A DNA stretch of 64,000 nt from Hyphomicrobiales bacterium (GTDB lineage: Bacteria; Pseudomonadota; Alphaproteobacteria; SPJN01), in NCBI GenBank assembly GCA_006844605.1, contig SPJN01000004.1, positions 78,635-142,634 of the forward strand, in the 5' to 3' direction. Position numbers and translations under genes: made by a program. Shown here in pieces: positions 37,224-64,000 of this stretch (position 1 is its first letter; the number at the start of each line of letters is the position of its first letter). The notes beneath the pieces were generated by a model that saw nothing but the letters and a program-made list of their open reading frames with translations, did not search any database and was not told where the DNA came from.

Positions 37224-37340
37224 CGGTCCTGTCGCAGAATTCCGTAAATAATCAGTGGAACTTATATGGAAATGTCAGATAGTGGCTTCAAGTAAGGGAA
37301 ATTCATATTTTCCACAATGCGACAGAAAAACAAAACATAT

Positions 37341-37400: not shown

Positions 37401-37445
37401 AAAAGTGGCTGCTTTCAGCCATTATTAGGGATGCAGGAGGGCGCA

Positions 37446-37892: not shown

Positions 37893-37896
37893 TCTG

Positions 37897-38346: not shown

Positions 38347-38367
38347 ATTTAAACTTGATGGGCGTAT

Positions 38368-39267: not shown

Positions 39268-39294
39268 TACATCGACTGCACCACAGGCTGGTGT

Positions 39295-39445
39295 AGGGAA
39301 TACGGTGCGCTCTGAATTTAGGGCAATTCCGCAACTGTCCCCGCAACTGTAATCGGTAAGTGGGCTGCCAAACCACTGTCTTGCAAAAGATGGGAAGGGG
39401 CCGCACCACGGTTGAGCCGAAAGTCAGGAAACCTTGCCGCCTGTC
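39295..39445 (+). ncRNA. Cobalamin (B12) riboswitch
   Basis: GGTGCGCTC...AGGGCAA...CCGCAACTGTAA...GGGAAGGGGCCGCACCACGG...AAGTCAGGAAACCTTGCCGCC: the B12-box AGTCAGGAAACCTTGCC fits rAGYCMGgAgaCCkGCc with one insertion; directly upstream of a TonB-dependent receptor and ABC importer. Confidence 0.55.
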
Positions 39446-39564
39446 CGTCCTCATGGCCGTCCGGGTTGAGCCTGCCATGTCGGAACTTTCCGAAGCGACG
39501 GATGAACCGCACATACCCAGTGGGTGTGTTGCTAATGTCGTTTTTGCGGAAAGAGGTGCTTTCC

Positions 39565-43227: not shown

Positions 43228-43985
43228 CGACATTGTCGATACAAAACCTGTCGCTGACGATTGACCGAAACAGGCTGCTGGATGATGTCAGCCTGTCCAT
43301 TGGTACGGGTGAGCTTGTTGGATTGATCGGCCCCAACGGTGCCGGTAAGTCGAGCCTGCTGCGCGCCATCACAGGCAATTTACAAGGCTGGGAAGGCGCG
43401 ATTGATTTGGATGGTCAGCCGCTTGATGCTGTGTCCCGTCAGGACCGGGCAAAGGCGATTGCCTATCTGCCGCAAACCCATGAAGGGCTGTGGCCGATAT
43501 CCGGTCGGCGGCTGGTGATGTTGGGCCGCTTGCCCCATTTGGGGCCGTTCAGTGGCGCGACAGATCAAGATCATGCCTTGGTTGAGCAGATATTGCGGGA
43601 TGTCGATGCGCTGGCTTTCGCAGACCGCCCCGTCACGCATCTTAGCGGGGGGGAGCTGGCACGTATTTGGCTGGCCCGCGCTTTGGCAGTGCAAGCGCCG
43701 TTATTGCTGGCGGATGAGCCGATTGCCGCCCTTGATCCCGCGCATCAATTGGCAACCATGTCCTTGTTCCACAATGCCGTTAAACAGGGGCAGGGGGTGA
43801 TGGTCGTGTTACATGATTTGGGATTGGCGGCGCGCCTTTGTGATCGGTTGGTGCTGATGGACCGGGGCAAGGTCGTCGCAGATGGGACGCCCCAAAACGT
43901 GTTGACGGCGGACCGTGTGGCCGCCGTCTACAAAGTTCGATTGATCCGTGATGGATCAGGCGGTTTTAGCTTGCTGCCGCTGTAA
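43224..43985 (+). CDS. btuD: ABC transporter ATP-binding protein (BtuD/FecE-like)
   Basis: Walker A GPNGAGKSSLL, signature LSGGELAR, Walker B LLLADEP. Confidence 0.75.
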   Translation: MTTLSIQNLSLTIDRNRLLDDVSLSIGTGELVGLIGPNGAGKSSLLRAITGNLQGWEGAIDLDGQPLDAVSRQDRAKAIAYLPQTHEGLWPISGRRLVMLGRLPHLGPFSGATDQDHALVEQILRDVDALAFADRPVTHLSGGELARIWLARALAVQAPLLLADEPIAALDPAHQLATMSLFHNAVKQGQGVMVVLHDLGLAARLCDRLVLMDRGKVVADGTPQNVLTADRVAAVYKVRLIRDGSGGFSLLPL

Positions 43986-45420
43986 GCTGAACGCCGGCAC
44001 AAGGCATGGCAGGGGCTTCGCCCGTGAATGTCATGCGCAGGGTGCCGTTTTCATAGCTGCCTTCAATCTCACCACCATCAAGGCGGCGCAGGGCAAGCTG
44101 CCCATCAAGGCCATCAATCTGCACGGTCACTTCACCTGATGCAGGCAGATCACTGACCAGTGCGTAAACCGCGCCGTTCTTACCCCTTGTCAGGTTCAGT
44201 TCAGCGCCGTCCTTGGCGATCACAGTGCCGGGACCAAATGGCTTGCTGTCATAGACAGCCTCGTCATTGGCGCGCAGCCAGTCACCAACGGCCAGAATGC
44301 GGCTTGCCTGATCAGCGGGGATCTGGGCATGGCCATCGGGGCCGATGTTCAGCAGATAATTGCCGTTCCGTGCCACAACGCGGGCCAGGTCGGTAATCAA
44401 CTCATCAGATGACAGGAAGTCTTCTTCAGTTTCGGTGCGGTTATAGCCAAAGCCCCAACCAAGACCGCGTGTGGTTTCCCATTTCTTTTCCTGTGGTTCT
44501 TCAAAGAATGAGAATTCAGGCGTGCGGAAATCACTATGGGCGGGTTCTGCCCCCACCAAAGGCCCATCAAATTTTTTCATGGCCAGTTTGCCGAATTGGG
44601 TGGCAAGCCATTTTAGCGGCTGATAGCGGAAATATTTGTTGATCGGTTTGGCTGCCTGCCAACGGTCATTCACCACCCCGTCAGGGACGGCCTTATAATA
44701 ATCCTTGAACAGATCAGCCATGCCATCCATCAGCGGGTAGGAGATGTCGTTCCACAGGACGGACGGTTTATACCGTTCAATCAACTCGCGATAATGCGCA
44801 TCAACATAACGGTTATAGGCGGGGTCTGCGATTGTGGTCGCCAGCGTATCGACAGCAGATTCGATGCTGGTCGTCTCCCACGTCCAATCAAGACCGCCGG
44901 AATAATAGATGCCGAATTTCAACCCTTCGGCACGGACTGCATCTGCCAGTTCGCCGACAATATCGCGTTCTGATGACCAGCCCGGCTTATGGGGGTTTTC
45001 AACGTCAGACGGCCACAATGTGTAGCCATCATGATGCTTGGTCACCAACACAACATATTTGGCACCGGACTGTTTGAACAGCTTGGCCCATTCTTTGGCA
45101 TCGAACCCTTCCAGATTCTTTTCCCAAGGGGCGCGGAAATCCTCATAGGGCGCGTCGCCGTAATTTTCCTTGTGAAATGCGGCGGCAGAACTGCCCTCAA
45201 CCCGCATATTCTGCCAGTACCATTCCACATAGGGATTGTGCTTGATCAGATTTTCGAAGTCATTCTTCAATAGGTCAGGAAAATGCTGACCCTTTTCCGC
45301 ATAGGCGGGAATTGAATAGATGCCCCAATGGATAAAGATGCCGAACTTGCCGCCATCATACCAGTCTGGTACCTGCCGATCCTGAAGGTCCTCAAAACCG
45401 GGTTGAACTTTTTGTGCCAT
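43966..45420 (-). CDS. Alpha-L-fucosidase, glycoside hydrolase family 29
   Basis: GKFGIFIHWGIYSIPAY, YVVLVTKHHDGYTLWPS GH29 signatures. GAGGGGG SD serves the second ATG (MAQKVQ), so start set at 45420. Confidence 0.8.
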   Translation of the reverse strand: MAQKVQPGFEDLQDRQVPDWYDGGKFGIFIHWGIYSIPAYAEKGQHFPDLLKNDFENLIKHNPYVEWYWQNMRVEGSSAAAFHKENYGDAPYEDFRAPWEKNLEGFDAKEWAKLFKQSGAKYVVLVTKHHDGYTLWPSDVENPHKPGWSSERDIVGELADAVRAEGLKFGIYYSGGLDWTWETTSIESAVDTLATTIADPAYNRYVDAHYRELIERYKPSVLWNDISYPLMDGMADLFKDYYKAVPDGVVNDRWQAAKPINKYFRYQPLKWLATQFGKLAMKKFDGPLVGAEPAHSDFRTPEFSFFEEPQEKKWETTRGLGWGFGYNRTETEEDFLSSDELITDLARVVARNGNYLLNIGPDGHAQIPADQASRILAVGDWLRANDEAVYDSKPFGPGTVIAKDGAELNLTRGKNGAVYALVSDLPASGEVTVQIDGLDGQLALRRLDGGEIEGSYENGTLRMTFTGEAPAMPCAGVQLTAAAS

Positions 45421-45560
45421 GACAGAAGCCCCCTCTATCAATGTATTGAACTACAGCAATACCTATGTCATAGATTATTTACCCTGGCAAGCGCGCCATT
45501 TTGACGGAACTGCGGGCAATTGCCTATCGACATGCGTGATCACATGTCTATAACGGCGCC

Positions 45561-48602: not shown

Positions 48603-49433
48603 CTAGGTTTGTAGTGTGTCGGGGTTGATCTGAAAATCGAAGCAATAGTCAACTTGGGAAAGTTGGGTTTGTGGGGTGCTGTTTACCGGAAAGGGATACC
48701 ACGCGCCTTTAAGGCGATGTGGTGCAACTTGCGCAATTGTTTTGTCGAGTGTTGCGTGAAGGGCGATAAACTGGACCGGTGTGCCGGTGTCGGGTTTGGA
48801 TGTCATTTGCTGTGTCAGCCCATATGACAGTCCGGTTTTGCAAAGCTTGGCCTTCAGGGCTGCGCGCATAAGATCGTGACTTTGATCGGCCAGCAAAAAT
48901 TCATTTGGGTCATCGCTATATTCTTCGACAAAACTGCCAACAACGCCGGAATAGAAGGCAAGCGTGTATAAGGGAAAATTTGTGAGACGATAGCCGTTGG
49001 GGATGATGACTGCCAACAGCAGCGCAACAATCACTGTCGTTTCCTTATGGGATGACAGTGCCGCAAGGGCACAGATCAAAACGACAGGCAAAATTACGAC
49101 GGCAGAAATGTTGGAAACGATTTGGCCGCCGCCATGCCCAAGCACGTTATGGCCGACGGTCAATAAATACTCTGACACCGCAATTGTCACAAAGGCAACG
49201 ACCAGCACTGTTTTCATTACTTGCGATGGGGCTAGCTTAAACAAAAAACGGGCGACCAGAAACGTAAGCAGGGTGGTCGTTGCCAGTATTGGTATTGATA
49301 GAGCCAGATGCATAACCCCATCGTCGATATGAGAGGCGACTAGGTTTCTGATTGATGGATCGTCCACGTGCTTAACGGCTTTGCCTATTTTCCGCCAGAT
49401 CCATAAATGCAAACAAATAGCTCTGCGGATCAA
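48603..49433 (-). CDS. Hypothetical polytopic membrane protein (low-GC island)
   Basis: N-terminal ~150 aa with 4 predicted TM helices, C-terminal soluble domain. Start uncertain: 49433 overlaps the upstream gene by 62 nt; alternative ATG at 49313. Confidence 0.4.
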   Translation of the reverse strand: MIRRAICLHLWIWRKIGKAVKHVDDPSIRNLVASHIDDGVMHLALSIPILATTTLLTFLVARFLFKLAPSQVMKTVLVVAFVTIAVSEYLLTVGHNVLGHGGGQIVSNISAVVILPVVLICALAALSSHKETTVIVALLLAVIIPNGYRLTNFPLYTLAFYSGVVGSFVEEYSDDPNEFLLADQSHDLMRAALKAKLCKTGLSYGLTQQMTSKPDTGTPVQFIALHATLDKTIAQVAPHRLKGAWYPFPVNSTPQTQLSQVDYCFDFQINPDTLQT

Positions 49434-50121
49434 TGCCTATAAAATGGCATTGCAGAATGTCGTTAACAAAACCGTTTTCGAGATCATCTGTAATTGTGGA
49501 AATGCCATTATTGGCGGCCATGGTGACATCCAAAAAACTCTTTAGTGCAGTCTGTTTTTGTTCCGAAGGGTTCATTGTTGTGAAAAGAAGATTCTGCTCA
49601 CTGTAACGGGTAACCAGAAGTTGACTGACTTCTTTTGTTTCGCTGATCGTATCGAAAAATCCGCGGCCTGCCTTGTCTGACAAAATCAGAATGCTAAGTA
49701 GGGCTTTGCCACATGCATCGATGACTGCTTTTCCTAACGGATAATCATGCCCCGACATGGCGAGTATAAGCATGTCGATATGGGACTGCCGCAAACCTAT
49801 TTCAGCACAACCCAACAGGCCTTCAGGATCGGCGACGTGCGTGATGCTTACTTCGCTTGGATCGATGTCAAATCTGTGTGCAATTTCCTCGATAGACTCC
49901 GCTGATGCTTGCTCTCGAACCGTTGTGAAATTGTCGCTTAGCAGGGTGTTTGCGTATATCAATGAGTCTAGGCATTTAACGGCGATCGCTCGTTTTGCGG
50001 GATCTGTTGCGCTGTCATTTGCGTTTTCATCGGCGAATGTTGCTGGAACGGGCAAAATCAAACAGGCCAGCAATCCGCCGGCGATGAATTTTTTGAAGCG
50101 GGATTGTGTCCTACTCGTCAT
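49372..50121 (-). CDS. Hypothetical secreted protein, paralogue A (4 conserved Cys)
   Basis: Sec signal peptide (LLACLILPVPATFA-DE); alignable by eye with the upstream paralogue (GCAEIGLRQSHIDMLILAMSG vs ECFNIGMPKYEIMIGLQLIS). Confidence 0.45.
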   Translation of the reverse strand: MTSRTQSRFKKFIAGGLLACLILPVPATFADENANDSATDPAKRAIAVKCLDSLIYANTLLSDNFTTVREQASAESIEEIAHRFDIDPSEVSITHVADPEGLLGCAEIGLRQSHIDMLILAMSGHDYPLGKAVIDACGKALLSILILSDKAGRGFFDTISETKEVSQLLVTRYSEQNLLFTTMNPSEQKQTALKSFLDVTMAANNGISTITDDLENGFVNDILQCHFIGIDPQSYLFAFMDLAENRQSR

Positions 50122-50866
50122 TGTCTGTCTCCGCTTCCGTATTGGCGATGTGTTGACTTGCTGCTTTTAGGAACAGCCTTGTAGTGATGCCCACGTCGTC
50201 GCATTGATCAATATGGTCCCTGAATTTGTCCATATCCAAATCAGCGACGGTATGGCTTGCGTAATTACCCTTGTGCGTGGTTTCTGAAATGACGGTCTTA
50301 ACATAGTTTTCGGTTGCGTCATCTGCCGCATCCGGATGCGTAATATTGTGAATTACAGTCAGCGCATAATTGGCCTGATACAACATTTCATCATAGACAC
50401 GAATGCGTGACGCGGCGGGCATATTGCGGTAAACAGCAATGCCAAGAAACTGCGTTGCCGCACCAAGGCAGTTTGTAATATAGCCTTCGACCATTTCGGG
50501 AGGGTCATCGGAAATAAGCTGAAGACCGATCATGATCTCGTATTTGGGCATTCCGATGTTGAAACACTCGACAATGTCGTTAACGGAGAATTCATCGGCT
50601 GTAGCCGGATAATCCACGCCGGGAATATCAGCAATCTTCCGCATCACTTGCTGTGCAAATATTGAATAGGTGAGTGTGCCGTATTGTGGATAATTGTTTT
50701 CCATTTGTGCTGCCAGCCAATCTACCTGTGAGATACAGGCATAATGCTTTTCAACATCTGGCTGTGTTGCCTGCGTAGCCATTGTCGTTCCCGACAGCAC
50801 GGTTAACGCAACCGCAACTGCAGCAACGTAGCGCGGCCATGACTGGATGGATTTTCTTGAAGGCAT
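50111..50866 (-). CDS. Hypothetical secreted protein, paralogue B (4 conserved Cys)
   Basis: Start set at the internal ATG at 50866, giving signal peptide MPSRKSIQSWPRYVAAVAVALTVLSGTTMATQA; paralogous to the adjacent gene. Confidence 0.45.
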   Translation of the reverse strand: MPSRKSIQSWPRYVAAVAVALTVLSGTTMATQATQPDVEKHYACISQVDWLAAQMENNYPQYGTLTYSIFAQQVMRKIADIPGVDYPATADEFSVNDIVECFNIGMPKYEIMIGLQLISDDPPEMVEGYITNCLGAATQFLGIAVYRNMPAASRIRVYDEMLYQANYALTVIHNITHPDAADDATENYVKTVISETTHKGNYASHTVADLDMDKFRDHIDQCDDVGITTRLFLKAASQHIANTEAETDNDE

Positions 50867-51010
50867 TGCCTGCCATAATGTATGGAAAAGTGTGCGCATT
50901 GCTGTCGCCCCCCCGCCGACTTTACGTGCTTTGCAGTGCGCCAAATAGGGGCGCATTGATTCTTGTGAATAATATTGGAATTGGGGCGGGGCAACAACCC
51001 AAGGTGGTAA

Positions 51011-51490
51011 CTATTTGTTCGCGAACCGCGCCTTGACGACTGGGTGGGCACCTTTGCGTGCCACGGGCCGCAGGTTCACAGGCCGGGTTACCAAGCTGCC
51101 ATCTTCAAAGGCAAGCTTCATGGGGCCAAGCCTTTTGCCGCTGTCTTTATCTTCGAAACCAACCTGCGGGCCTTCCTCAGCGAAGGCCCACTTGTCACCC
51201 CATTGGGCCATCGACATTAGGACGGGAAACAGGTCCTTGCCCTTTTGGGTTAGGGTATAGGCATAGCGCGTGCCCTTGTCGCCAATGTCCTGGCGGTCCA
51301 TCACGCCTTGTTCAACCAACATGGCAAGACGGTCTGACAGAATGTTTTTGGCGATACCGGTATGGGTGCGAAACTCGTTAAAGCGCGTTGCGCCGTAAAA
51401 CGCCTCACGCACGACCAGCAATGTCCATGAATCGCCAACAAGGTTGAGCGCACGGGAAATCGGACAGTAATGTTTATGCTGCTTGGTCAT
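51011..51490 (-). CDS. HxlR-family winged-helix transcriptional regulator
   Basis: CPISRALNLVGDSWTLLVVREAF...FNEF typical HxlR/DUF24 signature; ~50-aa C-terminal extension. Confidence 0.75.
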   Translation of the reverse strand: MTKQHKHYCPISRALNLVGDSWTLLVVREAFYGATRFNEFRTHTGIAKNILSDRLAMLVEQGVMDRQDIGDKGTRYAYTLTQKGKDLFPVLMSMAQWGDKWAFAEEGPQVGFEDKDSGKRLGPMKLAFEDGSLVTRPVNLRPVARKGAHPVVKARFANK

Positions 51491-51560: not shown

Positions 51561-52118
51561 CTAGTCCTCGCCGATGACGATCAGCTTGGAAATGTCTTCC
51601 CCAGCCGCCTCACATGCACCACGATAAAGCGACAGGGCGGCAGGCGCATCAATGATTGACAGAACATTGCCATCATCATCCACATTCAGGTTGGCGCCAT
51701 AAATGGCAAACCAAACCTCGGTCTCGCCGTCTTGATCTTCTGGTACACATAATGTGTGGAGCGAGCCTGCGGGCTCAAACAAATAGGATCCGGGCTCATT
51801 CACCTCTGTCGGGTATTCCTTATAGAACCATTTGCCTTTCAAGGTGACCGCATAAACCAAGCCGGTGTGATAATGTTTGGTGATTTGGGTGCCCGGTTGA
51901 AAGCGTGTTTTGCTGATCCACAGCCCGATATTCAAATCAACTTGCAGCAACTGCAATTCTGTTCCGTCACCCAATGCGACATAGGGCAATTCTTCATGCT
52001 TGATCAGGCTGGTTACACCATCGACTGATAGCGGCACGGTTGAGGCACCGCGTGCTTCCATTGTGGCGGCCATTTTCGGCAACTGATCGATCAGGGACAC
52101 GGTTTTGGGGGCAGTCAT
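51561..52118 (-). CDS. Cupin-fold protein, 2,4'-dihydroxyacetophenone dioxygenase (DAD)-like
   Basis: HYHTGLVYAVTLKGKWFYKEY...EPAGSLHTL cupin metal-binding His pattern. Start moved to the internal ATG (~52118, MTAPKTVSL); the upstream extension is Arg/Pro-rich junk; coordinate +/-1. Confidence 0.5.
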   Translation of the reverse strand: MTAPKTVSLIDQLPKMAATMEARGASTVPLSVDGVTSLIKHEELPYVALGDGTELQLLQVDLNIGLWISKTRFQPGTQITKHYHTGLVYAVTLKGKWFYKEYPTEVNEPGSYLFEPAGSLHTLCVPEDQDGETEVWFAIYGANLNVDDDGNVLSIIDAPAALSLYRGACEAAGEDISKLIVIGED

Positions 52119-52201
52119 GGCAGCTCCACGAATATTGGAAAAGGGGATGGGGGTAGGGCGGCGGCACACCATCATGTGCGGATGCGCCGCCAAAGGTTTA
52201 A

Positions 52202-53407
52202 CTAGGCAACTTCGAACAGGCCCGCTGCGCCCATGCCGCCACCGATGCACATGCTGACGACGACATATTTTTCGCCGCGCCGTTTGGCTTCGATCAGGGC
52301 GTGGCCTGTGCTGCGCGCACCTGTCATGCCGTAGGGGTGCCCGATTGAAATCGCGCCGCCATTGACGTTATAGCGTTCGGGGTCAATCCCAAGTGTGTCG
52401 CGGCAGTACAGGCACTGGCTGGCGAACGCTTCGTTCAATTCCCACAACCCGATATCGTCAACCTTCAGGCCCGCGCGCTCCAACAGACGGGGCACGGCAT
52501 AGACCGGACCGATGCCCATTTCATCAGGTTCGCACCCGGCAACGGCAAAACCGCGGAAAATGCCAAGCGGATCGATGTTGCGTTTTTCAGCTTCCTTGCC
52601 ATTCATAATAATGCAGGCAGACGCACCGTCAGACATTTGCGAGGCATTGCCAGCGGTGACGAACTTGCCTTGTTTGACAACATTGCCGCCCGCAAAAACC
52701 GGGTTCAGTGCCTGTAGGTTTTCAATGGTTGTACCGGGGCGATTGCACTCATCGCCGGTTACGGTCACTTCCTCTTCGGAAACGTCACCGGTTTCCTTGT
52801 TGACCTTTTTCCATGTGGTGGTCATCGGCACAATTTCATCATCGAATTTTCCCGCGGCCTGTGCAGCGGCGGTGCGTTGCTGGCTTTGCAGGGCATATTC
52901 GTCCTGATATTCGCGGCTGATGCCATACCGATCTGCCACAATCTCTGCCGTTTCGATCATCCCCATGTAAAGGCCGGGATGGCTTTCGATCAGTGACTTC
53001 TCAACCGCTTCATGGCGGTTCATCTTGCCGCTTAACTGAACAAGTGACAGGCTTTCAACGCCGCCCGCGCCCATAACAGGAACACCTTCATTCATCACGC
53101 GGCCAGCGGCTGTTGCAATCGCTTGCAGGCCGGATGAGCAAAAGCGGTTGATTGTGGTGCCGGACGTGGTCACCGGGCACCCGGCGCGCAGGGCTGACAG
53201 GCGCGCAATGTTGGAACCTGTGGCCCCTTCGGGATGGGCGCAGCCCATGACCACATCTTCAACCTCGCCCGGATCAATGCCGGCCCGGTCAATGGCGTGT
53301 TGCAATACATGACCGCCCAATGTGGCACCGTGGGTGTTGTTGAATGACCCGCGGCCTGATTTGGCAAGGCCTGTGCGGGCGGTTGATACGATGACGGCTT
53401 CGGTCAT
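52202..53407 (-). CDS. Acetyl-CoA C-acyltransferase (thiolase)
   Basis: [11 protein letters not shown] (Cys active site), [30 protein letters not shown] thiolase signatures. Confidence 0.85.
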
Positions 53408-53515
53408 GGGGCTCTCCTGTTAAATTGTTTTTGTGCAGGCGGTATTTGACTGTTTGTCGCGCGCCATGTCTATACTCACGTCACAAATATTTACGACTGA
53501 CGCCGAAAAGGGACC

Positions 53516-54304
53516 GTGATGGACTTCGTGACAATAGAGAAGAATGACCGCATTGCAGAGGTTACGTTTTCCCGTGGGGATGGCATGAATGCCCTGTCTG
53601 CACAGGCCATGACTGAATTACGCGATACAGGCCGCGCATTGCAGGACGACCCTGATCTTGTGGCGGTGATCCTGAAAACAGATGGCAGGTTCAGCGCCGG
53701 GGCCGACCTGAAGGATCGCAGCCAAATGGTCATGCAATCAGGCACGATGATGCAGAAGCGCCATCACCTGAAGCTTGGTCCCGACATGTGTCAGGCGTGG
53801 CACGATATCGAAGCCTATACCATCGTTGCCATAGAGGGGTTTTGTATCGGCGGCGGTTCCGCCCTTGCGTCGGCGATTGATTATCGGGTCATGGGGCAGG
53901 GGGCGCACATGCGCCTGCCTGAAGTGCCGTTGGGCATGAATATGAGCTGGCAGACAATTCCGCGTCTGGTTGCCCAAATCGGCCCCGCCCGCACCAAACA
54001 ATATGTGATCATGGGGGAGCCTGTCAGCGCCCAACAGGCGCTTGATTGGGGCCTGGTTGAGGAGGTGGTGGATGATGGCAGCACCATCGACGCGGCGCGC
54101 GCCTATGCGGCACGGGTGGCGAAGTTGCCGCCGCTACCGGTGAGGATGAGCAAACAGGCCATCAACGCCGCTGCCTATGCCGTGGCACAGGCGACAACCT
54201 TTATGGACCGCGATCAATTTATGCTCGCCACTTCGTCAGAAGATTACCGTGAATCGGTGAAAGCGTTTTTGCAGCGGCGAGACCCTGAATTTAAGGGAAA
54301 CTAG
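53516..54304 (+). CDS. Enoyl-CoA hydratase/isomerase (crotonase) family protein
   Basis: VAVILKTDGRFSAGADLKD and IVAIEGFCIGGGSALA oxyanion-hole motifs. Confidence 0.8.
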   Translation: MMDFVTIEKNDRIAEVTFSRGDGMNALSAQAMTELRDTGRALQDDPDLVAVILKTDGRFSAGADLKDRSQMVMQSGTMMQKRHHLKLGPDMCQAWHDIEAYTIVAIEGFCIGGGSALASAIDYRVMGQGAHMRLPEVPLGMNMSWQTIPRLVAQIGPARTKQYVIMGEPVSAQQALDWGLVEEVVDDGSTIDAARAYAARVAKLPPLPVRMSKQAINAAAYAVAQATTFMDRDQFMLATSSEDYRESVKAFLQRRDPEFKGN

Positions 54305-55050: not shown

Positions 55051-56601
55051 TTAAAGCACCTTCAGCAATTGTTCGAAGGCCCAAACCATAGGTGCGGTGT
55101 ACCACGGGGCCTCAGGCTCTGCCGCCGGGTCTACCATGTATAGCGTCCGCTGGGCAGCCAGTTCCTGTTCCAGCTGGCGCGTGATCTGCTCGTAACCGGG
55201 CTGGCCATGCAGGCTGATCTGTTCATTCGGGTCAGCTTGCAGGTCAAATAATTCCCATTCCCCGATGCGGTAATAGTGGATCAGTTTCCACCGGTCTGTC
55301 CTGACGCCATAATGACGGGGCACATTGTGGAAGCCGGGGTGTTCATAATAATGATAATAGATCGCCTGCCGCCAATCTGCCGCGACGCCTTGGGTCAGTG
55401 GCAGTATGGACTGGCCATGCATTGGCTGATCCGGCGTTACATTCGCGGCATCAAGCAAGGTCGGTGCAAGGTCGATATTCTGCACCAGCGCATCATTGAT
55501 GCTGCCCGGTTTGATGTGACCGGGCCATTGCATCAGCAGCGGCACACGGGTTGATATGTCATACATCCAGCGTTTGTCGAACCAGCCATTTTCGCCCAGA
55601 TAAAATCCCTGATCGGATGTGTAAAGGATAATTGTATCGTCGGTTAGCCCGGCAGCATCAACCGCGTCCAGCAAGCGGCCGATGGACCGATCCATCCCCT
55701 CAACCGATGCCAAATAGGATTTGATGTAGCGCTGATATTTCCAGCGGGTCAGATCATCACCCTTTAGTTGCGCGTTTTCGAATGCCTGATTGCCGGGGCC
55801 GTAGGTTTCCTCAAAAACTTTCTTTTGCGCTTCGGTCAGGTAGGAGGGGACAGATAACTTCACATCCAAACGGGTCATGTGATCGTCGATGCGCATTTTG
55901 TTTTGGCTGCGCGCGGTACCTTTTTTGGCATGGGCTGAAAACAAGGTGGCAGGTTCGGCAACCGTGGCGGCCTCGTCCCAGTTTTGCATTTCTTCAATTG
56001 ATGGCAGCCAATCGCGGTGGGGGGCCTTGTGCTGCACCATCAACAAGAACGGCTTGTCACCCTCCCGCTTGTTGGTCAGCCAGCGCAACGCCTTGTCGGT
56101 AATTTCGTCAGTTGTGTAGCCTTCTGTTTGTTCAACGCCGTTCGGGCTGCGGAAGCTGGCATTATAATAGGTGCCTTGTTCCCCCACATTGTCGATCACG
56201 GCCCAGTCATCAAATCCTGTGGGGTCGCTGTAAAGGTGCCATTTGCCGAACAGCGCGGTTTGATAGCCTGCCGCCTGTAACAATTTGGGGAAGGTTTGCT
56301 GTGTGCCATTAAATGCGCCGCCCCATTCATTGACCATGTGGCCATGAACATGGCTGTGGACCCCGGTCAGCAAGGTGGCGCGGCTGGGACCGCATACAGC
56401 GTTCCCGACAAAGGCATTGTTGAACCGCATGCCGCCTTGGGCCAGCCGATCAATTGCAGGTGTATTGATCAGGTTTGAGCCATAGGAGGAGATGGCAGTC
56501 GTCGCATGATCGTCTGAAAATATCACGATGATGTTCGGGCGTGCTGCTGCCCAACCGGATGTGAGTGCCAACAAGGCAGTTATAAGTGCGGTGCGCAGCA
56601 T
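55051..56601 (-). CDS. Sulfatase (formylglycine-dependent, Cys-type)
   Basis: Signal peptide; NIIVIFSDDH, the C-x-P-S-R motif (AVCGPSRATLLTG), GKWHL. Confidence 0.8.
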   Translation of the reverse strand: MLRTALITALLALTSGWAAARPNIIVIFSDDHATTAISSYGSNLINTPAIDRLAQGGMRFNNAFVGNAVCGPSRATLLTGVHSHVHGHMVNEWGGAFNGTQQTFPKLLQAAGYQTALFGKWHLYSDPTGFDDWAVIDNVGEQGTYYNASFRSPNGVEQTEGYTTDEITDKALRWLTNKREGDKPFLLMVQHKAPHRDWLPSIEEMQNWDEAATVAEPATLFSAHAKKGTARSQNKMRIDDHMTRLDVKLSVPSYLTEAQKKVFEETYGPGNQAFENAQLKGDDLTRWKYQRYIKSYLASVEGMDRSIGRLLDAVDAAGLTDDTIILYTSDQGFYLGENGWFDKRWMYDISTRVPLLMQWPGHIKPGSINDALVQNIDLAPTLLDAANVTPDQPMHGQSILPLTQGVAADWRQAIYYHYYEHPGFHNVPRHYGVRTDRWKLIHYYRIGEWELFDLQADPNEQISLHGQPGYEQITRQLEQELAAQRTLYMVDPAAEPEAPWYTAPMVWAFEQLLKVL

Positions 56602-57050
56602 GTGATCCCCCCGGATGCTGTAACTGGTTTGATTGTGATCATCCTAAATTGATTAACTAATCAAGAAAACCGAAAAGTCGAATCAACTTGTTTGCAGTTT
56701 GGGGGAGGTGAGGGCGTATCGCATAGGTGCGACATAAAGATCATCACATATTCTGTAAGGAGTGTTATGGCCGTTTCGCTTGAATTGGGCGATCAAGAAA
56801 AAAGAATACACATCAGCTATTTACGGGCGTTTCGGCTGCGACAGTCAGGCGCTTGACGCTAAGTGACAAAATATCATATAAGCACATATCGGCTGACAAA
56901 AAATCATTCAGACTTGACTTACTTGCCGGTAACAATTACCTAGGGGCTTGTAAGTAGGAGCCGCGCTGAAGCGGCCACGGGCTGGAAACGTAACAAAATA
57001 AAAGCTATCGGCATGACGCAGGTAGCAATAACAGAAGAAGAGGCGAGATC

Positions 57051-58541
57051 ATGACAGATCATCTCGACGTCGTCATTGTTGGTGCAGGCATCTCAGGTAT
57101 TTGCGCTGCGTACCACATGCAAAAAGAATCTCCGAACAAAAGCTATGCCATTTTGGAAGGCCGCGCCGATATGGGCGGCACGTGGACATTGTTCACCTAT
57201 CCTGGCATCCGCTCAGACTCAGACATGTATACGCTGGGTTTCCCCTGGCGTCCGTGGCGCGATCCGAAGGCCATTGCCGATGCGCCCGATATTATGAATT
57301 ATCTGCGCGAGACGGTTGAAGAAACCGGGATCGACAAAAAGATCCGCTATAACTCAAAAGTTGTTGCCGCATCTTGGAGCAGCGACAAGGGCCAATGGGC
57401 AATCACCGTGCGCAATAGCGAAACCGGTGAAGACAAGGAAATGACCTGTAACTTCCTGTTCATGTGCTCAGGCTATTACAAATATGAAGAAGGCTTCACA
57501 CCGGAATTTCCGGGCCGTGATGACTTTAAGGGTGAGGTGATTCATCCGCAGCACTGGCCTGAAAATCTTGACTACACCGGCAAGAAAGTTGTCGTCATCG
57601 GTTCAGGTGCAACAGCGGTGACGCTGGTGCCTGCCATGACTGATAAGGCTGCCAAGGTCACTATGTTGCAGCGGACGCCTTCTTATGTTGTGTCGCGTCC
57701 CAATAAGGGCGAGGCCGCCGAAAAGCTGGCGAAGTTCATGCCCCTGTCATGGCGTGATCAGGTGATGCGCTGGACAGCCATCATCATGGGGATCGTCACA
57801 TTCAACATGCTGCGCAAGAACCCTGAACGCGGTAAGAAAATTCTGACCGGAATGGTGCGTGAAGAGTTGGGGCCGGAGCTGACGAAAAAGCATTTCACCC
57901 CTGACTACAATCCGTGGGACCAGCGTATTTGCGCGGTGCCGGATGCAGATATGTTTGATGCTATCCGTGAAGGCACAGCAGAAGTGGTCACAGACCATAT
58001 CGACCGCTTTGTCGAAAACGGTATTCTGCTGAAATCAGGTGATCTGTTGGAAGCTGACATCATCATCACCGCAACCGGTCTGAACCTGCAATTGTTCGGC
58101 GGTATGGATGTGGAAGTTGATGGCAAGGCTGTCGATTTTTCAGAAACATTGGCCTACAAGGGTATGATGTTCTCTGACGTGCCGAACTTTGCAAACACGA
58201 TGGGTTACACCAACGCATCTTGGACATTGAAGGCCGATCTGACCGACCAATATGTCTGCCGTCTGATCAACCACATGGACAAACATGGCTATTCGCAATG
58301 TGTGCCGCGTGTTGATGATGATGTTGAAATTGAAAACTTCCTCGACTTCACATCAGGTTATGTGCAGCGTGCCGTTGCCTTCCTGCCCAAACAGGGTGAT
58401 CGCAAGCCGTGGAAGGTCAACCAGAACTACATCAAGGATTTGATGTTCTTCAAGTTCAGTCGACTTGATGATGGCGTTATGAAATTTTCGAACGAGGTTA
58501 AGGCCGCACCAGAACAAGGTGCCGACAAAAAGGCAGCTTAA
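57051..58541 (+). CDS. Type I Baeyer-Villiger monooxygenase (class B flavoprotein monooxygenase)
   Basis: VVIVGAGISG FAD motif, BVMO fingerprint FKGEVIHPQHWP (F-x-G-x3-H-x3-W-P), second Rossmann VVVIGSGATA. Confidence 0.8.
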   Translation: MTDHLDVVIVGAGISGICAAYHMQKESPNKSYAILEGRADMGGTWTLFTYPGIRSDSDMYTLGFPWRPWRDPKAIADAPDIMNYLRETVEETGIDKKIRYNSKVVAASWSSDKGQWAITVRNSETGEDKEMTCNFLFMCSGYYKYEEGFTPEFPGRDDFKGEVIHPQHWPENLDYTGKKVVVIGSGATAVTLVPAMTDKAAKVTMLQRTPSYVVSRPNKGEAAEKLAKFMPLSWRDQVMRWTAIIMGIVTFNMLRKNPERGKKILTGMVREELGPELTKKHFTPDYNPWDQRICAVPDADMFDAIREGTAEVVTDHIDRFVENGILLKSGDLLEADIIITATGLNLQLFGGMDVEVDGKAVDFSETLAYKGMMFSDVPNFANTMGYTNASWTLKADLTDQYVCRLINHMDKHGYSQCVPRVDDDVEIENFLDFTSGYVQRAVAFLPKQGDRKPWKVNQNYIKDLMFFKFSRLDDGVMKFSNEVKAAPEQGADKKAA

Positions 58542-58567
58542 CCTTACGTAAATTGACTAATTTTGTG

Positions 58568-58599
58568 CCGGCCTGGACCAGTTCCGGGCCGGTTCTTTA
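58568..58599 (+). terminator. Hairpin plus T-rich tail after the BVMO gene
   Basis: CCGGCCTGGA-N5-TCCGGGCCGG then TTCTTTA. Confidence 0.35.
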
Positions 58600-58666
58600 T
58601 TGAATAATGCCCTTCGTGTCGTGTAGCTTTCGTTCAACTGCTATTTGACATTGAAGGATATGATCT

Positions 58667-59670
<1,004 letters not shown>

Positions 59671-59671
<1 letters not shown>

Positions 59672-60621
59672 TGTCCGTCACTGCTGCACAAACCAGCAAC
59701 CCTTATGGGGAGCCTACTGCCCATTTTTTTGATGCGGGGGCCGGGCCGAACATTGCATGGTATGAATGGGGCAATCCTGATGGGCCTGTCCTGTTTTTGT
59801 GCCATGCCACGGGCTTCCACGCGCAGGTTTGGCGGCAGACGATTGCCAACCTGCCCGAAGGCTATCGCATCATTGCGGTTGATATGTGTGGACATGGGCA
59901 CAGCGATGCTGACGGGTTCATGACGAACTGGCGTGATCCGGTTGATGATATCATCGCGTTGATCGAAGCGTTGGACCTGCATGACATTATCGGCGTGGGC
60001 CATTCATTTGGCGGGATGGTCACGGCCACCGCGACGACGCTTATTCCTGAACGGTTTGCGCGGCTGGTGTTGATTGATCCTGTGATCCTGCCGCCTGAAG
60101 CCTATGCCAATGACGCCATGACTGATTTCCCCCATCCGTCAAAACACCCGATGGCAAAGCGTCGGTATGAGTGGCATTCAGTGGCTGAGATGGTGGACCG
60201 TTTTGCCCATCGGCATCCTTACGATAAATGGTTGCCTGAGGCGTTGGTGGATTATTGCCAGTATGGATTGGTGCCCAATCCGGCGGGCGAGGGGGTGGTG
60301 TTGGCCTGTCATCCACATTTTGAAGCCTCAATCTATATGACCAGCAATAGCTTTCGGGTGCATGATGATTTGCACAAAATCAACTGCCCTGTAAAAGTGC
60401 TGCGCGCCAAACAACGGACAGAACTTGATCCCGCCCGGATCGACTTTTCGCTGTCCCCCACATGGCCGGTGCTGGCCGACAAAATTCCGCAAGGGGTAGA
60501 TATTTATCTGCCCCAGCTCACCCATTTTATGCCGATGCAGGACCCCCATTTGGTTGCGCGCCTTATTGCGGATCCTGACTATTTGGCAGAAGATATAACC
60601 AAACATGAAAACGTGGAGTGA
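59671..60621 (+). CDS. Alpha/beta-fold hydrolase (esterase/lactonase candidate)
   Basis: HATGFHAQVW oxyanion region and nucleophile elbow GVGHSFGG; ATG overlaps the upstream stop. Confidence 0.7.
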
Positions 60622-61946
60622 ACGTCATGAAATTGATCAGTGAAGAAGCGTGGGAAGACGTTATTGGCTATAAGCCTGCCCATCCGATCACCTATCCGAC
60701 ACCGCCGGGTTTCGACCTTGCCGATGTGTCTATGTGGACCAAGGGGCATCCGTTTGATTTTTATAAGCAATTGCGCGAAGAAGCGCCCGTTGCCTGGTTC
60801 GATGTGCCGGAGGCTCAGGGTTTTTGGGCCGTCACCCGTTACGAAGATATTAAACAAGTTGAATTGCACCCTGAGATTTTCTCCTCACAAATGGGCGGCA
60901 TCAACATGGCTTATGGCAAGCCAAATGAACGGCACCCCCGGTTGCACAGCGCGACACTGAACACGTTGATCAGTATGGATCGGCCGCAGCACATCGACCT
61001 GCGGATGCAACACCGTGATTTCTTTACCCCCCAATATGTGGAAAGCCTGCGCGAACGTGTGCGTGGGGAAGTGACCCGCCTGTTGGACAATGTAGAGAAA
61101 AATGGGCCGAAAACAGATTTCGTCAAACATTTTTCAACTCGTCTGCCATTGTTTACCCTTTGTGAAATGATGGGCATTCCCGAACGTGACCGGGCCAAGG
61201 TTGTGCGGTGGATGTACTATCTTGAACAGGCTGCGGCCTTGTTTTCGCAACGGACAAAGGGGGGGATCCCGCCTTATCTGTTCATTATGCGCTTTATGTG
61301 GAACATCCGTCAGATGTTCAAATATGGCGAAAAGGCATTGAATGGCCGCCGCGCCAATCCGCAAGATGACCTGATGACGAAAATTGCCCAAGCCACCATA
61401 GGGGATGAACAATTGCGTCAGGAATTTTTGGATGGTGCATGGCTGCTGATTATTTTCGCCGGTAATGACACCACACGTAATTCGCTGTCAGGCACGATGC
61501 GTCTGCTGACCGAATTCCCTGACCAACGCCAGCGTGTGTTGGATGATCCGTCATTGATCCCGCAAATGGCACAGGAAGCTGTCCGCATGACGTCGCCTGT
61601 TATTCATATGCGTCGGACTGTGACGCAGGATACTGAACTGAACGGCCAGAAAATGGTGCGCGGTGAAAAAGTGATCATGTGGTACGGCTCAGCCAATCGT
61701 GACCCGGCGGTGTTTGAAGACCCGGATCGGTTTGATGTGACACGTGCCAATGCAACCGACCATATGGCATTCGGCTTTGGTCCCCATGTTTGCCTTGGCC
61801 AGCGAATTGCTGCCATGCAGATTGAGGAAGCCTATAAGCAAATCCTTGAACGCTTCCCCAACATCAAATGGACAGGCAAGCAGGACATTTCGATGAACAA
61901 TTTCGTTCACGCGATTAATGGACTGGAGGTTGATATCCGGGGCTAG
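60618..61946 (+). CDS. Cytochrome P450
   Basis: Heme-binding loop FGFGPHVCLGQRIA, I-helix AGNDTTRN, EXXR (EAVRMTSP). Confidence 0.85.
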   Translation: MNVMKLISEEAWEDVIGYKPAHPITYPTPPGFDLADVSMWTKGHPFDFYKQLREEAPVAWFDVPEAQGFWAVTRYEDIKQVELHPEIFSSQMGGINMAYGKPNERHPRLHSATLNTLISMDRPQHIDLRMQHRDFFTPQYVESLRERVRGEVTRLLDNVEKNGPKTDFVKHFSTRLPLFTLCEMMGIPERDRAKVVRWMYYLEQAAALFSQRTKGGIPPYLFIMRFMWNIRQMFKYGEKALNGRRANPQDDLMTKIAQATIGDEQLRQEFLDGAWLLIIFAGNDTTRNSLSGTMRLLTEFPDQRQRVLDDPSLIPQMAQEAVRMTSPVIHMRRTVTQDTELNGQKMVRGEKVIMWYGSANRDPAVFEDPDRFDVTRANATDHMAFGFGPHVCLGQRIAAMQIEEAYKQILERFPNIKWTGKQDISMNNFVHAINGLEVDIRG

Positions 61947-61987
61947 ACCTGTCCTGAACGGATGATCAACCGAAGACAGTTGTGATT

Positions 61988-62029
61988 GATGGCGCGGTGC
62001 CGGGGTTATCCCGCCGCGCCATCTTTTTT
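61988..62029. terminator. Bidirectional terminator hairpin between the convergent P450 and MFS genes
   Basis: Perfect 10-bp stem GATGGCGCGG...CCGCGCCATC followed by TTTTTT on the plus strand; overlaps the last codons of the MFS gene. Confidence 0.5.
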
Positions 62030-63478
62030 GTCGCCACGTGCCATCAGGGCAAGGTGAATATTCTTCAGCCGTTCCTTGGTGATGTCGTAACGCATCACAA
62101 ACAGCAGTGCCAAAATACTCAACGGTGCCCAAATCGGTCCGCCCAGCAAGGCCACCCAATTCAATGTCTCTTGCGGAATGTCACCAGCCTGCGAGGCGTT
62201 TTCGGGGAAACCGATCAGGTCCAGACCAACACCGCCCAGCAATGTGCCGACACCGGTTGCCGCCTTCGCTGAAAATGAGCGCGCGCCAAAAAATATGCCT
62301 TCTTGTCGGTCGCCATAGCGGGCCTCGTAATCATCGGTGATGTCAGCCATCATGCTGTCGCCAATCACAAGTGTGATCCCGACCAGCAAGGCCCACATGG
62401 CCGTCCAGCCAGATACATGCCAGATCAACATGGGGTCGCCGTTTTCAGGAAACACGCCGTAAAGACGGGATAGGACGGGTACGGCTCCAACCAGTATAGA
62501 TGCGGCCAACGCCCCCAGAAACAATGTTTTCTTTTCCATATGGGGGGCAAGCGAAGCAGCTGTGGGAATACCGATCATGATGCCGAACATCAATGACATG
62601 GCATAAATGAACAACTGGTCTGTTGTGAATTCCCAAAAGAAAACCCCAACATGATTGGTAAATGCCTTTTGAATGCCAGACAGGATAAAGATGGCAAGAA
62701 GACCACTGAACAAGGCGCTGAAGCTGCGGACGCTCAACGCCTGTTTCAGTTCGCGAAAGGCCTTTCGAAGGGCACGGATCGGATGGCTGTCGGTTAAATT
62801 GGCGTTGCGCGAGATGTCCCGAAATTTGGTCGTGCGCCAGATCATGACCATCGCGCTGACTGCAATCATAATGACCGTCATGATGATATAGGAGCGATAG
62901 CCGTCAGGGTTCAACATGCCATTGGCATAGTCCGGTGTTTCGGCAAAGAAGACACCGAAAGCCAAACCCAAAATGATGATAGAGGCGACATAGCCAACCA
63001 TTTGCCGCCACACAACGATACTAGTCCGTTCATGATAATCTGAGCTCATCTCAGCGCCGAGCGAGATATAGGGGACGCCCAACAACGTCATGGCCCCACG
63101 TGCCAGAATGGTGAACACCAACATCCAGAGGAACAACTGCATATCAGCCAGTCCGGCTGGAGGTTGGAAAATGGCATAGATACTAAGCGTCAGTGGAATG
63201 ATTGATGCCATCATAAACGGATGACGCCGGCCAAACCGCTTGCCCCGCCACCCGTCAGAGAGGGAGCCGACCAAGGGGTCCGTGACCGCATCAAAGACAA
63301 GGGCAATGGCAACGGCCAATCCCGCCAATGTGCCGGGCAGGCCCAAAACCTGATTATAGTAAAAGAACAAAAACGTATCGAACGCGACAAAGTTTGCCGA
63401 TTCAGCTATTTGCCCAGTGGCATAGCCGAGTTTGTCTTTTACGCTGACAGTCTTTTTCGGTGCCGCCAAGTCGGTCAT
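62006..63478 (-). CDS. MFS transporter, glycoside-pentoside-hexuronide (GPH) cation symporter family
   Basis: N-terminal DKLGYATGQ motif typical of MelB/GPH, 12 TM, 490 aa. Confidence 0.7.
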   Translation of the reverse strand: MTDLAAPKKTVSVKDKLGYATGQIAESANFVAFDTFLFFYYNQVLGLPGTLAGLAVAIALVFDAVTDPLVGSLSDGWRGKRFGRRHPFMMASIIPLTLSIYAIFQPPAGLADMQLFLWMLVFTILARGAMTLLGVPYISLGAEMSSDYHERTSIVVWRQMVGYVASIIILGLAFGVFFAETPDYANGMLNPDGYRSYIIMTVIMIAVSAMVMIWRTTKFRDISRNANLTDSHPIRALRKAFRELKQALSVRSFSALFSGLLAIFILSGIQKAFTNHVGVFFWEFTTDQLFIYAMSLMFGIMIGIPTAASLAPHMEKKTLFLGALAASILVGAVPVLSRLYGVFPENGDPMLIWHVSGWTAMWALLVGITLVIGDSMMADITDDYEARYGDRQEGIFFGARSFSAKAATGVGTLLGGVGLDLIGFPENASQAGDIPQETLNWVALLGGPIWAPLSILALLFVMRYDITKERLKNIHLALMARGDKKDGAAG

Positions 63479-63613
63479 TGTCTGCTAATCCCCCAACGCT
63501 GCGTGTTGCAGCCAGTCATCAGTTTTATTGTCACTTGTCAGATAGGTAAAGAAATATTCTTGATTGCTTGATCAATTTTTAGTTCACTATGTGAAACAAA
63601 ATGGGCAGGTAAA

Positions 63614-64000
63614 ATGAAACTAACAAAGCACCCTATGAACACCGGATTTGATTGGCAGGATCGGCAGGGGCCATTTAAGCTGATTACCGATGCGCAGGCT
63701 GCGCAATATAACAATCAGGGTTTTTTCGTTCTTGAAAATGTTTTTTCTGCGGAAGAAATCGCTGCGGTTGAAGCGGCGATTGACCCATTGGAACAACAGA
63801 CCGAGGCGTTTTTGCGCACACAGGCTGATGGCAAATTGTTTATCGCGCAGGCTGATCAAATCACCTTCACTATCAACTGTGTGTTGCATAACGAAGTCTT
63901 GAAACGGTTTACCCAGCATAATGTGTTTGCTGATTTGTGCCATGACTTGATGGGGCCTGACTGTCGGTTGTATTGGGATCAAGCGGTTTACAAAAAGCCT
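63614..64000 (+). CDS. Phytanoyl-CoA dioxygenase (PhyH)-family protein, N-terminal part (runs off the window end)
   Basis: Own translation: MKLTKHPMNTGFDWQDRQGPFKLITDAQAAQYNNQGFFVLENVFSAEEIAA...CHDLMGPDCRLYWDQAVYKKP, a PhyH-like N-terminus. Not in the ORF track because it has no stop within the window. Confidence 0.55.
   Translation, partial: MKLTKHPMNTGFDWQDRQGPFKLITDAQAAQYNNQGFFVLENVFSAEEIAAVEAAIDPLEQQTEAFLRTQADGKLFIAQADQITFTINCVLHNEVLKRFTQHNVFADLCHDLMGPDCRLYWDQAVYKKP

Follow-up and report, generated by a model that had tools for sequence, protein, structure and literature searches.

In the 64,000-nt stretch of the Hyphomicrobiales bacterium contig SPJN01000004.1 analysed here (hereafter the window), we found four adjacent genes near the right-hand end, encoding a Baeyer-Villiger monooxygenase (BVMO), a medium-chain dehydrogenase/reductase (MDR), an alpha/beta hydrolase and a cytochrome P450, and we lean towards reading them as a lineage-specific catabolic gene set built on a core in which a ketone becomes an ester and the ester is hydrolysed. 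The best-supported part of this reading is the predicted BVMO-esterase core, which is backed by independent gene adjacencies and by a natural fusion protein; the gene content, the motifs, a hairpin with its covariation, a pair of palindromes and the recurrence of BVMO-hydrolase linkage elsewhere are shown by sequence, whereas the substrate class, the order of the steps, the roles of the MDR and the P450 and all that concerns regulation we infer. The original prediction for this DNA had named these four genes together with a transporter and a PhyH-like dioxygenase, and had quoted three protein motifs. Open reading frame (ORF) listing and Pfam searches place all six genes where it had put them, regular-expression searches recover all three motifs, and its observation of the gene set stands.

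Results

The BVMO gene (57051-58541, plus strand) encodes a protein of 496 aa with matches to the Pfam families FMO-like and Pyr_redox_3. Regular-expression searches showed that the fingerprint FxGxxxHxxxW[P/D] is present as FKGEVIHPQHWP (residues 159-170), the second fingerprint [A/G]GxWxxxx[F/Y]P[G/M]xxxD as GGTWTLFTYPGIRSD (residues 42-56), and the Rossmann motif GxGxx[GA] twice, as GAGISG (11-16) and GSGATA (184-189), and by these sequence tests the protein is a type I BVMO, that is, a class B flavoprotein monooxygenase. Solved structures of the CHMO/PAMO type align to its N-terminal half alone (residues ~2-247), and homologues at 57-61% identity number in the thousands, one 57% match being named EthA by its source. 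Its length, the partial structure matches and the name of that one homologue are indirect evidence that it belongs to the short EthA/AlmA-like kind.

The hydrolase gene (59671-60621, plus strand; 316 aa) matches Abhydrolase_1 and Abhydrolase_6 in Pfam, and its nucleophile elbow, one of the motifs already quoted, is found as GHSFG at residues 110-114. Among 21 homologues, Ser112 (within GHSFG), His285 and Asp136 are invariant and Asp258 is nearly so. The AlphaFold model (pLDDT 91) has generic esterases and thioesterases as its Foldseek neighbours (TM 0.6-0.72), and that structure search returned generic alpha/beta hydrolases only, with no specific match. Sequence and model together have the marks of an esterase-type serine alpha/beta hydrolase, and we regard the protein as a probable esterase.

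Relatives of this hydrolase recur beside BVMOs in other genomes. Among 70 metagenomic loci with a hydrolase relative of 43-50% identity, five carry an ORF with the BVMO motif one or two genes upstream on the same strand, and these fall into two types of gene order. In three (L095, L097 and L099) the relative lies near an EthA-like BVMO of ~510 aa that is 43-44% identical to that of the window; in the other two (L100 and L107) the order is a 597-aa BVMO, a P450 (30% identity), the hydrolase and an enoyl-CoA hydratase, and in L107 the co-directional run comprises CoA ligase, aldo-keto reductase, BVMO, P450, hydrolase and enoyl-CoA hydratase, with a short-chain dehydrogenase/reductase (SDR) further on. 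As a control, 1.36 Mb around P450 orthologues contained three BVMO-motif ORFs, none of which adjoins the P450. In addition, plasmid pMP1 of Deinococcus radiodurans encodes an 833-aa fusion of an Abhydrolase_3 esterase with an EthA/AlmA-like BVMO (WP_010884002.1; L174:2933-5434), the BVMO domain of which is 49.5% identical to the window BVMO; this fusion supports a functional pairing of the two activities. A Streptomyces plasmid match (H9) carries the same annotation as the Deinococcus protein.

Another neighbour of the hydrolase relatives is a gene resembling isopentenyl diphosphate (IPP) isomerase (type 1, SNSCCSHP motif), found upstream in 19 of the 70 loci (L106, L108, L111-L115, L127, L128, L144, L149, L151, L152, L159, L163 and L165-L168), two genes upstream in two of them and mostly on the strand opposite to the hydrolase relative. 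We rejected it as a pointer to an isoprenoid substrate because the synteny is probably inherited within one gammaproteobacterial clade.

The MDR gene (58667-59671, plus strand; 334 aa) matches ADH_N and ADH_zinc_N in Pfam, and the original prediction had assigned to it a dehydrogenation yielding the ketone. However, regular expressions found neither a GHE motif nor any Cys among the first 137 residues of the protein, which has its sole Cys residues at 138 and 141, and both the catalytic and the structural zinc ligands of zinc-dependent MDR alcohol dehydrogenases are missing; because of this, ketone-forming dehydrogenation is not assignable to it. With its nucleotide-binding loop GTGGVS at residues 166-171, the protein has the characters of a zinc-free NAD(P)(H) oxidoreductase. 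Its best NCBIfam match is a PIG3-type quinone oxidoreductase, at 175 bits against a cut-off of 297, and its best solved structure is 9vey (E 1e-107), which has no Cys at the position of Cys141. Close homologues, 9vey included, bear the automatic name "NAD(P)-dependent alcohol dehydrogenase"; our literature search found no paper on PDB entries 9VEY and 8WKC, and a 58.6%-identical homologue sits on a plasmid in an uninformative neighbourhood. Zinc-free members of the MDR superfamily usually reduce C=C bonds or quinones, and from its sequence a quinone- or ene-type reductase is more likely here than a secondary-alcohol dehydrogenase. A "dehydrogenase" of such clusters that has no zinc ligands should not be presumed to be an alcohol dehydrogenase.

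The P450 gene (60627-61946, plus strand; 439 aa) is confirmed by Pfam p450 (E 1e-25) and by regular expressions, which locate the previously noted heme loop FGFGPHVCLG at residues 382-391, the ExxR motif as EAVR (317-320) and the I-helix motif as AGNDT (278-282). Its best solved-structure match is a reconstructed CYP125 ancestor (E 6e-80, 38.4% over aligned residues), followed by CYP153-, CYP126- and CYP124-type entries; identity to 7ant is 37%. Scores against present-day CYP125 entries are far lower (E 1e-53 to 1e-57), and the protein falls short of the convention of at least 40% identity for membership of the CYP125 family. At 37-38% identity it is, judged by sequence, a member of none of the CYP125, CYP124 and CYP153 families, and its regiochemistry is not readable from sequence. 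These nearest solved relatives hydroxylate sterol side chains, methyl-branched lipids and alkanes at the terminal position, and since terminal hydroxylation yields no ketone precursor, this kinship weakens the classical four-step route.

That route, encoded as one operon, would have the P450 hydroxylate a subterminal or ring position of an alkane, cycloalkane or terpenoid, the MDR oxidise the alcohol to a ketone, the BVMO insert oxygen to give an ester or lactone and the hydrolase open it. In its favour, the four enzyme classes are all present and tightly spaced, the same classes occur together in L107, the logic is that of an established pathway (PMC6304351), and a P450 at this level of identity could have the regioselectivity called for. 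Against it, the MDR has none of the zinc ligands that mark the alcohol-dehydrogenase type, the nearest relatives of the P450 are terminal hydroxylases, the BVMO gene is followed by a hairpin that resembles a terminator, and in 80 genomes no P450 orthologue adjoins a BVMO. Short EthA/AlmA-like BVMOs, moreover, are generally known to act on linear rather than cyclic ketones. We thus consider the strict linear route unlikely, perhaps one chance among several.

The closest NCBIfam names for two of the proteins are biosynthetic, PtlE for the BVMO (90 bits against a cut-off of 1100) and SolI for the P450 (179 against 850), which could suggest tailoring enzymes of a secondary-metabolite cluster. These scores are far below the cut-offs, though; no polyketide synthase, nonribosomal peptide synthetase or terpene synthase lies near the cluster, no core biosynthetic gene is found in the 64-kb window or the next 9.5 kb, and the neighbours are catabolic or housekeeping genes. 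A biosynthetic role is, in our estimation, scarcely credible.

The order BVMO, MDR, hydrolase, P450, MFS transporter (minus strand) and PhyH dioxygenase (plus strand) is kept in the window and in two other genomes, L003 and L171, with proteins 65-91% identical (75-91% in L003, a 3.07-Mb contig, and 65-88% in L171). Outside this group the picture is different. We collected 80 P450 orthologues (52-62% identity) by scanning species-representative genomes; they occur in Parvibaculales, Caulobacterales, Hyphomonadaceae, Halieaceae and others, in highly variable neighbourhoods. A hydrolase relative near the P450 orthologue of L008 was counted as chance, with unrelated genes lying between the two, and a 67%-identical P450 (L170) adjoins a mobile-element integrase outside this type of cluster. 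BVMO orthologues (58-61% identity) are likewise solitary in three other alphaproteobacterial loci, among them L086 (Parvibaculum) and L088 (Caulobacter segnis). The linear four-step pathway that the original prediction had in mind is therefore not a conserved unit, P450 and BVMO orthologues standing alone elsewhere, and the four-gene line-up is by sequence comparison a recent assembly specific to one lineage. In the Parvibaculum locus (L086:6493-9488) an MFS_2 transporter, 25% identical to that of the window, directly precedes the 60%-identical BVMO orthologue on the same strand.

One could also envision that the four genes are chance neighbours, general-purpose oxidative or detoxifying enzymes with no common pathway. 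The orthologues of each gene are found alone elsewhere with variable neighbours, and the order is conserved among close relatives only, as this explanation would have it. Yet the MDR, hydrolase and P450 genes overlap by one base or lie 5 nt apart with a conserved ribosome-binding site, and the linkage of BVMO and hydrolase has recurred independently and as a fusion protein, so we find such a coincidence improbable.

The spacing of the genes differs along the cluster. The original prediction had described four tightly linked genes, the last three with overlapping stop and start codons. Tight linkage holds for the MDR, hydrolase and P450 genes, whereas the BVMO gene is 125 nt from the MDR gene with a hairpin in the gap. 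Overlap holds for the MDR and hydrolase genes, which share 1 nt (TGATG), and not for the hydrolase and P450 genes: the P450 start at ATG 60627, where gene callers also place it, is conserved in three genomes, has a GGAG ribosome-binding site and lies 5 nt past the hydrolase stop, and only an alternative GTG start at 60618 (giving 442 aa) would produce an overlap, of 4 nt; an exact look-up of the GTG form of the protein gave no match. In the MDR-hydrolase-P450 run a conserved ribosome-binding site lies inside the preceding gene.

The hairpin between the BVMO and MDR genes (58567-58603, plus strand), picked up by a terminator scan, is GC-rich, has 11-12 base pairs and is followed by a U-tract (UUCUUUAUU). 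Its folding energy of -23.2 kcal/mol (z -4.3) is equalled by none of 200 shuffles, and in L003 and L171 wobble and double substitutions preserve the stem, the loop varies and the tail is invariant, a covariation that, over three sequences, is suggestive. The element looks like an intrinsic terminator or attenuator within the presumed operon, and the 73 nt preceding the MDR gene show no clear promoter. Because this conserved hairpin separates the BVMO gene from the other three, co-transcription of all four, as originally proposed, is not assured. In the convergent gap between the P450 and transporter genes, which is not conserved, we saw no convincing terminator.

Upstream of the BVMO gene lies a leader (56602-57050) that had been described as 450 bp with inverted repeats, possibly regulatory. 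Its exact size is 449 nt, it is common to the BVMO gene and a divergent sulfatase gene, and it does contain a conserved palindrome. Aligned to L003, the leader consists of invariant blocks amid diverged sequence, one of which includes a promoter-like TTGACG-18 nt-TATAAG (56854-56883, plus strand). A consensus promoter scan missed this element, the last -10 base of which is G, and it was spotted by reading the sequence and by its conservation; it may act as a promoter. The leader matched no riboswitch or known RNA family in Rfam, and a hairpin within it (56917-56955) was set aside as not significant alone (z -1.3).

The operator-like palindrome TTGAT-N6-ATCAA has exactly two perfect matches in the 64 kb (0.15 expected; none of 100 shuffles had two or more), and these fall one in each of the divergent intergenic regions that bracket the cluster. 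The first copy (TTGATTAACTAATCAA, 56649-56664) is 47 nt from the sulfatase start and 386 nt from the BVMO ATG, upstream of both, and is conserved in L003 at 9602-9617. The second (TTGATTGCTTGATCAA, 63560-63575) lies in the 135-nt divergent region between the transporter and PhyH genes, 38 nt before the PhyH ATG and 81 nt from the transporter start, and in L003 and L171 both the site and its flank stand out as conserved from the diverged sequence around them. A further copy, 45 nt before a second PhyH gene in L003, was not counted, being missing from the window's own strain. This arrangement suggests one dimeric regulator for the sulfatase and PhyH genes, and possibly also for the transporter and BVMO units that start in those intergenic regions. 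As previously stated, the cluster has no regulator gene beside it; the closest one, of the HxlR type, is found at 51011-51490.

The transporter gene (62006-63478, minus strand; 490 aa), convergent with the P450 gene, encodes an MFS_2 protein of the GPH superfamily (Pfam E 2.7e-66) that scores below the NCBIfam cut-offs for both GPH transporters (TIGR00792, 143.5 bits against 231) and MelB (117.8 against 456). Its best solved matches are MFSD2A lysolipid symporters (E 2e-17 to 1e-14), with MelB at 7e-10. The earlier step from a MelB-like symporter to a glycosylated substrate does not follow, MFSD2A being at least as close as MelB.

The divergent sulfatase gene (55051-56601, minus strand), present at the same place in L003, encodes a Cys-type, putatively periplasmic enzyme with Sulfatase (E 4e-57) and SGSH_C (E 1e-59) domains in Pfam, the formylglycine motif CGPSR at residues 70-74 and a signal-like N-terminal sequence in the translation. 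On the other side, the window ends within the gene for a PhyH-family Fe(II)/2-oxoglutarate dioxygenase (63614-64000, plus strand), holding the first 129 of its 271 codons. This 129-aa fragment alone has no Pfam match, but the full 271-aa gene on L002, a contig of a 99.45% identical strain (11 mismatches in 2,000 nt against the window) that extends past the window end, has Pfam PhyH (PF05721), as does the L003 orthologue (E 3.9e-36), and the earlier call of a PhyH-like dioxygenase is thereby borne out. An HQD iron-triad motif is found at residue 138, and the nearest characterised members are distant (E 1e-18).

Past the window end, L002 and L003 continue with a 457-aa Coq4-domain protein, a second PhyH and an SDR, on the opposite strand, and then purF and other housekeeping genes. 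From sulfatase to SDR the block is a conserved one, found both in the window strain (window plus L002) and in L003. The Coq4-domain region (L003:17528-20671, minus strand; L002:5825-8948) lies ~1-4 kb beyond the end. The 457-aa protein has a C-terminal Coq4 domain with an intact HDxxH-x11-E zinc motif and an N-terminal region of ~270 aa without a family match; PhyH dioxygenases stand on both sides of it, the SDR follows the second one, and bacterial Coq4-like proteins are uncharacterised in such a context.

Alternatively, the genes could serve to remodel the cell's own envelope or storage lipids, as proposed for the mymA operon of Mycobacterium tuberculosis, which has a similar enzyme mix (PMC13234193); the BVMO orthologues are also widespread as single genes, which would fit a housekeeping-like role. 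By analogy this is conceivable, but the flanking periplasmic sulfatase and importer-type MFS_2 protein with their common palindrome point to uptake of an outside compound, and no lipid-biosynthesis genes lie nearby. We regard lipid remodelling as improbable, about on a par with a chance arrangement of the genes.

Elsewhere in the window, a cobalamin riboswitch (80 bits; 39245-39455, plus strand) lies directly upstream of a TonB-dependent receptor gene, and the genes at 39412-43985 (TonB-dependent receptor, periplasmic binding protein, FecCD permease and ABC ATPase) resemble a B12 uptake operon. A run at 24487-30061 (plus strand) for biosynthesis of a nonulosonic-acid sugar (pseudaminic or legionaminic-like) comprises a Polysacc_synt_2 dehydratase, a DegT aminotransferase, a cytidylyltransferase, an ORF without family match, a GNAT acetyltransferase and NeuB. 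At 31878-37223 (minus strand) an amidohydrolase, an epoxide hydrolase (EHN N-terminal domain and alpha/beta fold) and a TonB-dependent receptor stand in a row. A YeeE/YedE-type sulfur-transport protein, its DUF6691 partner and a sulfotransferase-family protein follow one another at 37317-39267 (plus strand), and an alpha-L-fucosidase lies at 43966-45441; the sulfur-transport, sulfotransferase and fucosidase genes together with the sulfatase are hints of sulfated-compound metabolism in the neighbourhood. Beside the HxlR-type gene, three successive ORFs without Pfam match (276, 249 and 281 aa; 48603-50956, minus strand) form an arrangement with it that is conserved in the sister genome (L003:546-2901). 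The slot from the HxlR gene to a hexapeptide-repeat gene, beside the conserved cluster, is variable, holding a ChrR-cupin, a thiolase and an enoyl-CoA hydratase in the window (51561-54304) and two biotin-dependent acyl-CoA carboxylase subunits in L003 (3572-7191).

Discussion

If the catabolic reading is right, the EthA/AlmA-like BVMO would insert oxygen beside the carbonyl of an aliphatic ketone that is hydrophobic and probably has a long or methyl-branched chain. The serine hydrolase would then cleave the ester so formed to an alcohol and a carboxylic acid, and these products would enter beta-oxidation. A thiolase and an enoyl-CoA hydratase are encoded 3-5 kb upstream of the cluster, where L003 has acyl-CoA carboxylase instead. 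The zinc-free MDR would be an accessory NAD(P)H oxidoreductase, most likely reducing an enone C=C bond or a quinone or carbonyl, and the P450 would most likely hydroxylate the omega (remote) end of the same chain with a ferredoxin and ferredoxin reductase encoded elsewhere. The BVMO gene may be transcribed from a promoter in the 449-nt leader, with the hairpin and U-tract behind it lowering or gating read-through into the MDR-hydrolase-P450 run, and the sulfatase, the MFS_2 transporter and the PhyH dioxygenase could be tied in through the common TTGAT-N6-ATCAA site. A long-chain or methyl-branched lipid is our best guess at the substrate because the relatives of the P450 act on lipids, sterol side chains and alkanes, because the transporter resembles a lipid symporter, and because in Alcanivorax pristane and phytane induce almA together with a P450 (PMC3664771).

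What the original prediction had called an oxygenative catabolic cluster is thus retained in part: the type I BVMO, the serine hydrolase and a neighbourhood free of polyketide synthase, nonribosomal peptide synthetase and terpene synthase genes agree with it, and the MDR step, the P450 step and the conserved linear unit do not. Even the reading we favour has evidence to contend with. A neighbouring BVMO is missing from 65 of the 70 hydrolase-relative loci, none of the 80 genomes has a BVMO, MDR or hydrolase homologue beside its P450 orthologue, and no conserved BVMO partners were seen across the three genomes with BVMO orthologues that we inspected; with BVMO and P450 orthologues alone in variable neighbourhoods, the four-gene set is no functional unit of ancient origin. 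Synteny is weak evidence here because the three genomes with this gene order are closely related. The esterase domain of the Deinococcus fusion belongs to another alpha/beta-hydrolase family and is unrelated in sequence to the window hydrolase, so that the fusion supports functional pairing and not homology. No ferredoxin-type Fe-S Cys motif occurs in any window ORF, the first palindrome is much nearer to the sulfatase start than to that of the BVMO, and EthA-type enzymes also oxidise sulfur compounds, which makes a ketone substrate an assumption.

One could speculate further that the whole block from sulfatase to SDR forms one TTGAT-N6-ATCAA regulon devoted to the catabolism of an algal lipid that is sulfated or prenylated (a sterol sulfate, a phytyl lipid or a prenylquinone, for instance), though we would call this a long shot. 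Its members would be the sulfatase, BVMO, MDR, hydrolase, P450, MFSD2A-like transporter, PhyH, Coq4-like protein, second PhyH and SDR, a membership just as speculative. Entry would conceivably proceed by periplasmic desulfation, lipid-type MFS import and CYP124/125-like omega-hydroxylation, and breakdown, no less conjecturally, by PhyH-type alpha-oxidation past methyl branches, quinone or enone reduction and Baeyer-Villiger cleavage. We know of no description of a genetically linked bacterial pathway of this kind. The paired sites do offer a testable handle on the regulator and the inducing substrate, and through them the oxygenase genes could be linked with the sulfatase, the PhyH dioxygenases and the lipid-type transporter.

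If the core reading of ketone oxidation and ester hydrolysis is true, it would add an uncultured marine alphaproteobacterium to the examples of hydrophobic ketones degraded by the BVMO-esterase route, which would not be surprising, and it would help to annotate the very large EthA/AlmA-like family in ocean metagenomes.

Comparison with known systems

All of the enzyme classes found here are already known, and it is their assembly that is particular to one lineage. Subterminal alkane or ketone oxidation uses a BVMO and an esterase, as in Thalassolituus oleivorans with TOL_0709 and TOL_0906 (PMC6304351). The window resembles that module in having an EthA-type BVMO with both fingerprints, an esterase, a marine host and a presumably hydrophobic substrate, and the Thalassolituus module likewise postulates an alcohol-to-ketone step and an initial hydroxylase (PMC6304351). 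Unlike Thalassolituus, in which the BVMO, esterase and dehydrogenase genes are scattered, the window has its genes clustered, with a P450 and a zinc-free MDR.

The gene almA is found in marine bacteria including Parvibaculum, and that of Alcanivorax is the one induced along with a P450 (PMC3664771). With AlmA/EthA-type enzymes the window BVMO shares a length of ~490-500 aa, the BVMO fingerprints and a wide distribution as single genes in marine Proteobacteria, the biochemical role of AlmA itself being unsettled.

The mymA operon of M. tuberculosis, in which the BVMO is MymA, the fourth of the seven genes is adhD and regulation is by VirS (PMC13234193), is similar in gene content: an EthA-like BVMO leads, and hydrolase and dehydrogenase genes including an MDR (adhD) follow. 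It differs from the window cluster in belonging to another phylum, in its seven genes, which include acyl-CoA synthetase and TAG-synthase-like genes, in having no P450, and in its adjacent AraC-type regulator VirS and its link to the cell envelope and drug activation. An esterase and an SDR are also part of the mymA operon.

The window P450 compares with CYP125, CYP124 and CYP153 through near full-length structure matches and a conserved I-helix acid-alcohol pair, ExxR and heme loop; unlike them, it stands at 37-38% identity, outside any steroid or alkane pathway context and with no adjacent redox partners. Among the metagenomic loci, L107 and L100 have a hydrolase of the same family (46-47% identity) as the next gene behind a P450 and a BVMO, all on one strand, and also hold an NAD(P)H oxidoreductase and beta-oxidation genes. 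Their BVMO, however, is of the long 597-aa type (24% identity), their P450 is as distant as noted above (30%), and an aldo-keto reductase replaces the MDR; because these components differ from those of the window, the two arrangements were assembled independently. The Deinococcus fusion, in turn, is like the window in its BVMO domain and unlike it in its Abhydrolase_3-type esterase, and is itself an uncharacterised protein. Lastly, scattered genes had already prompted the proposal that P450, alpha- and beta-oxidation, dehydrogenase and BVMO act in combination when marine lipids are degraded (PMC5395668).

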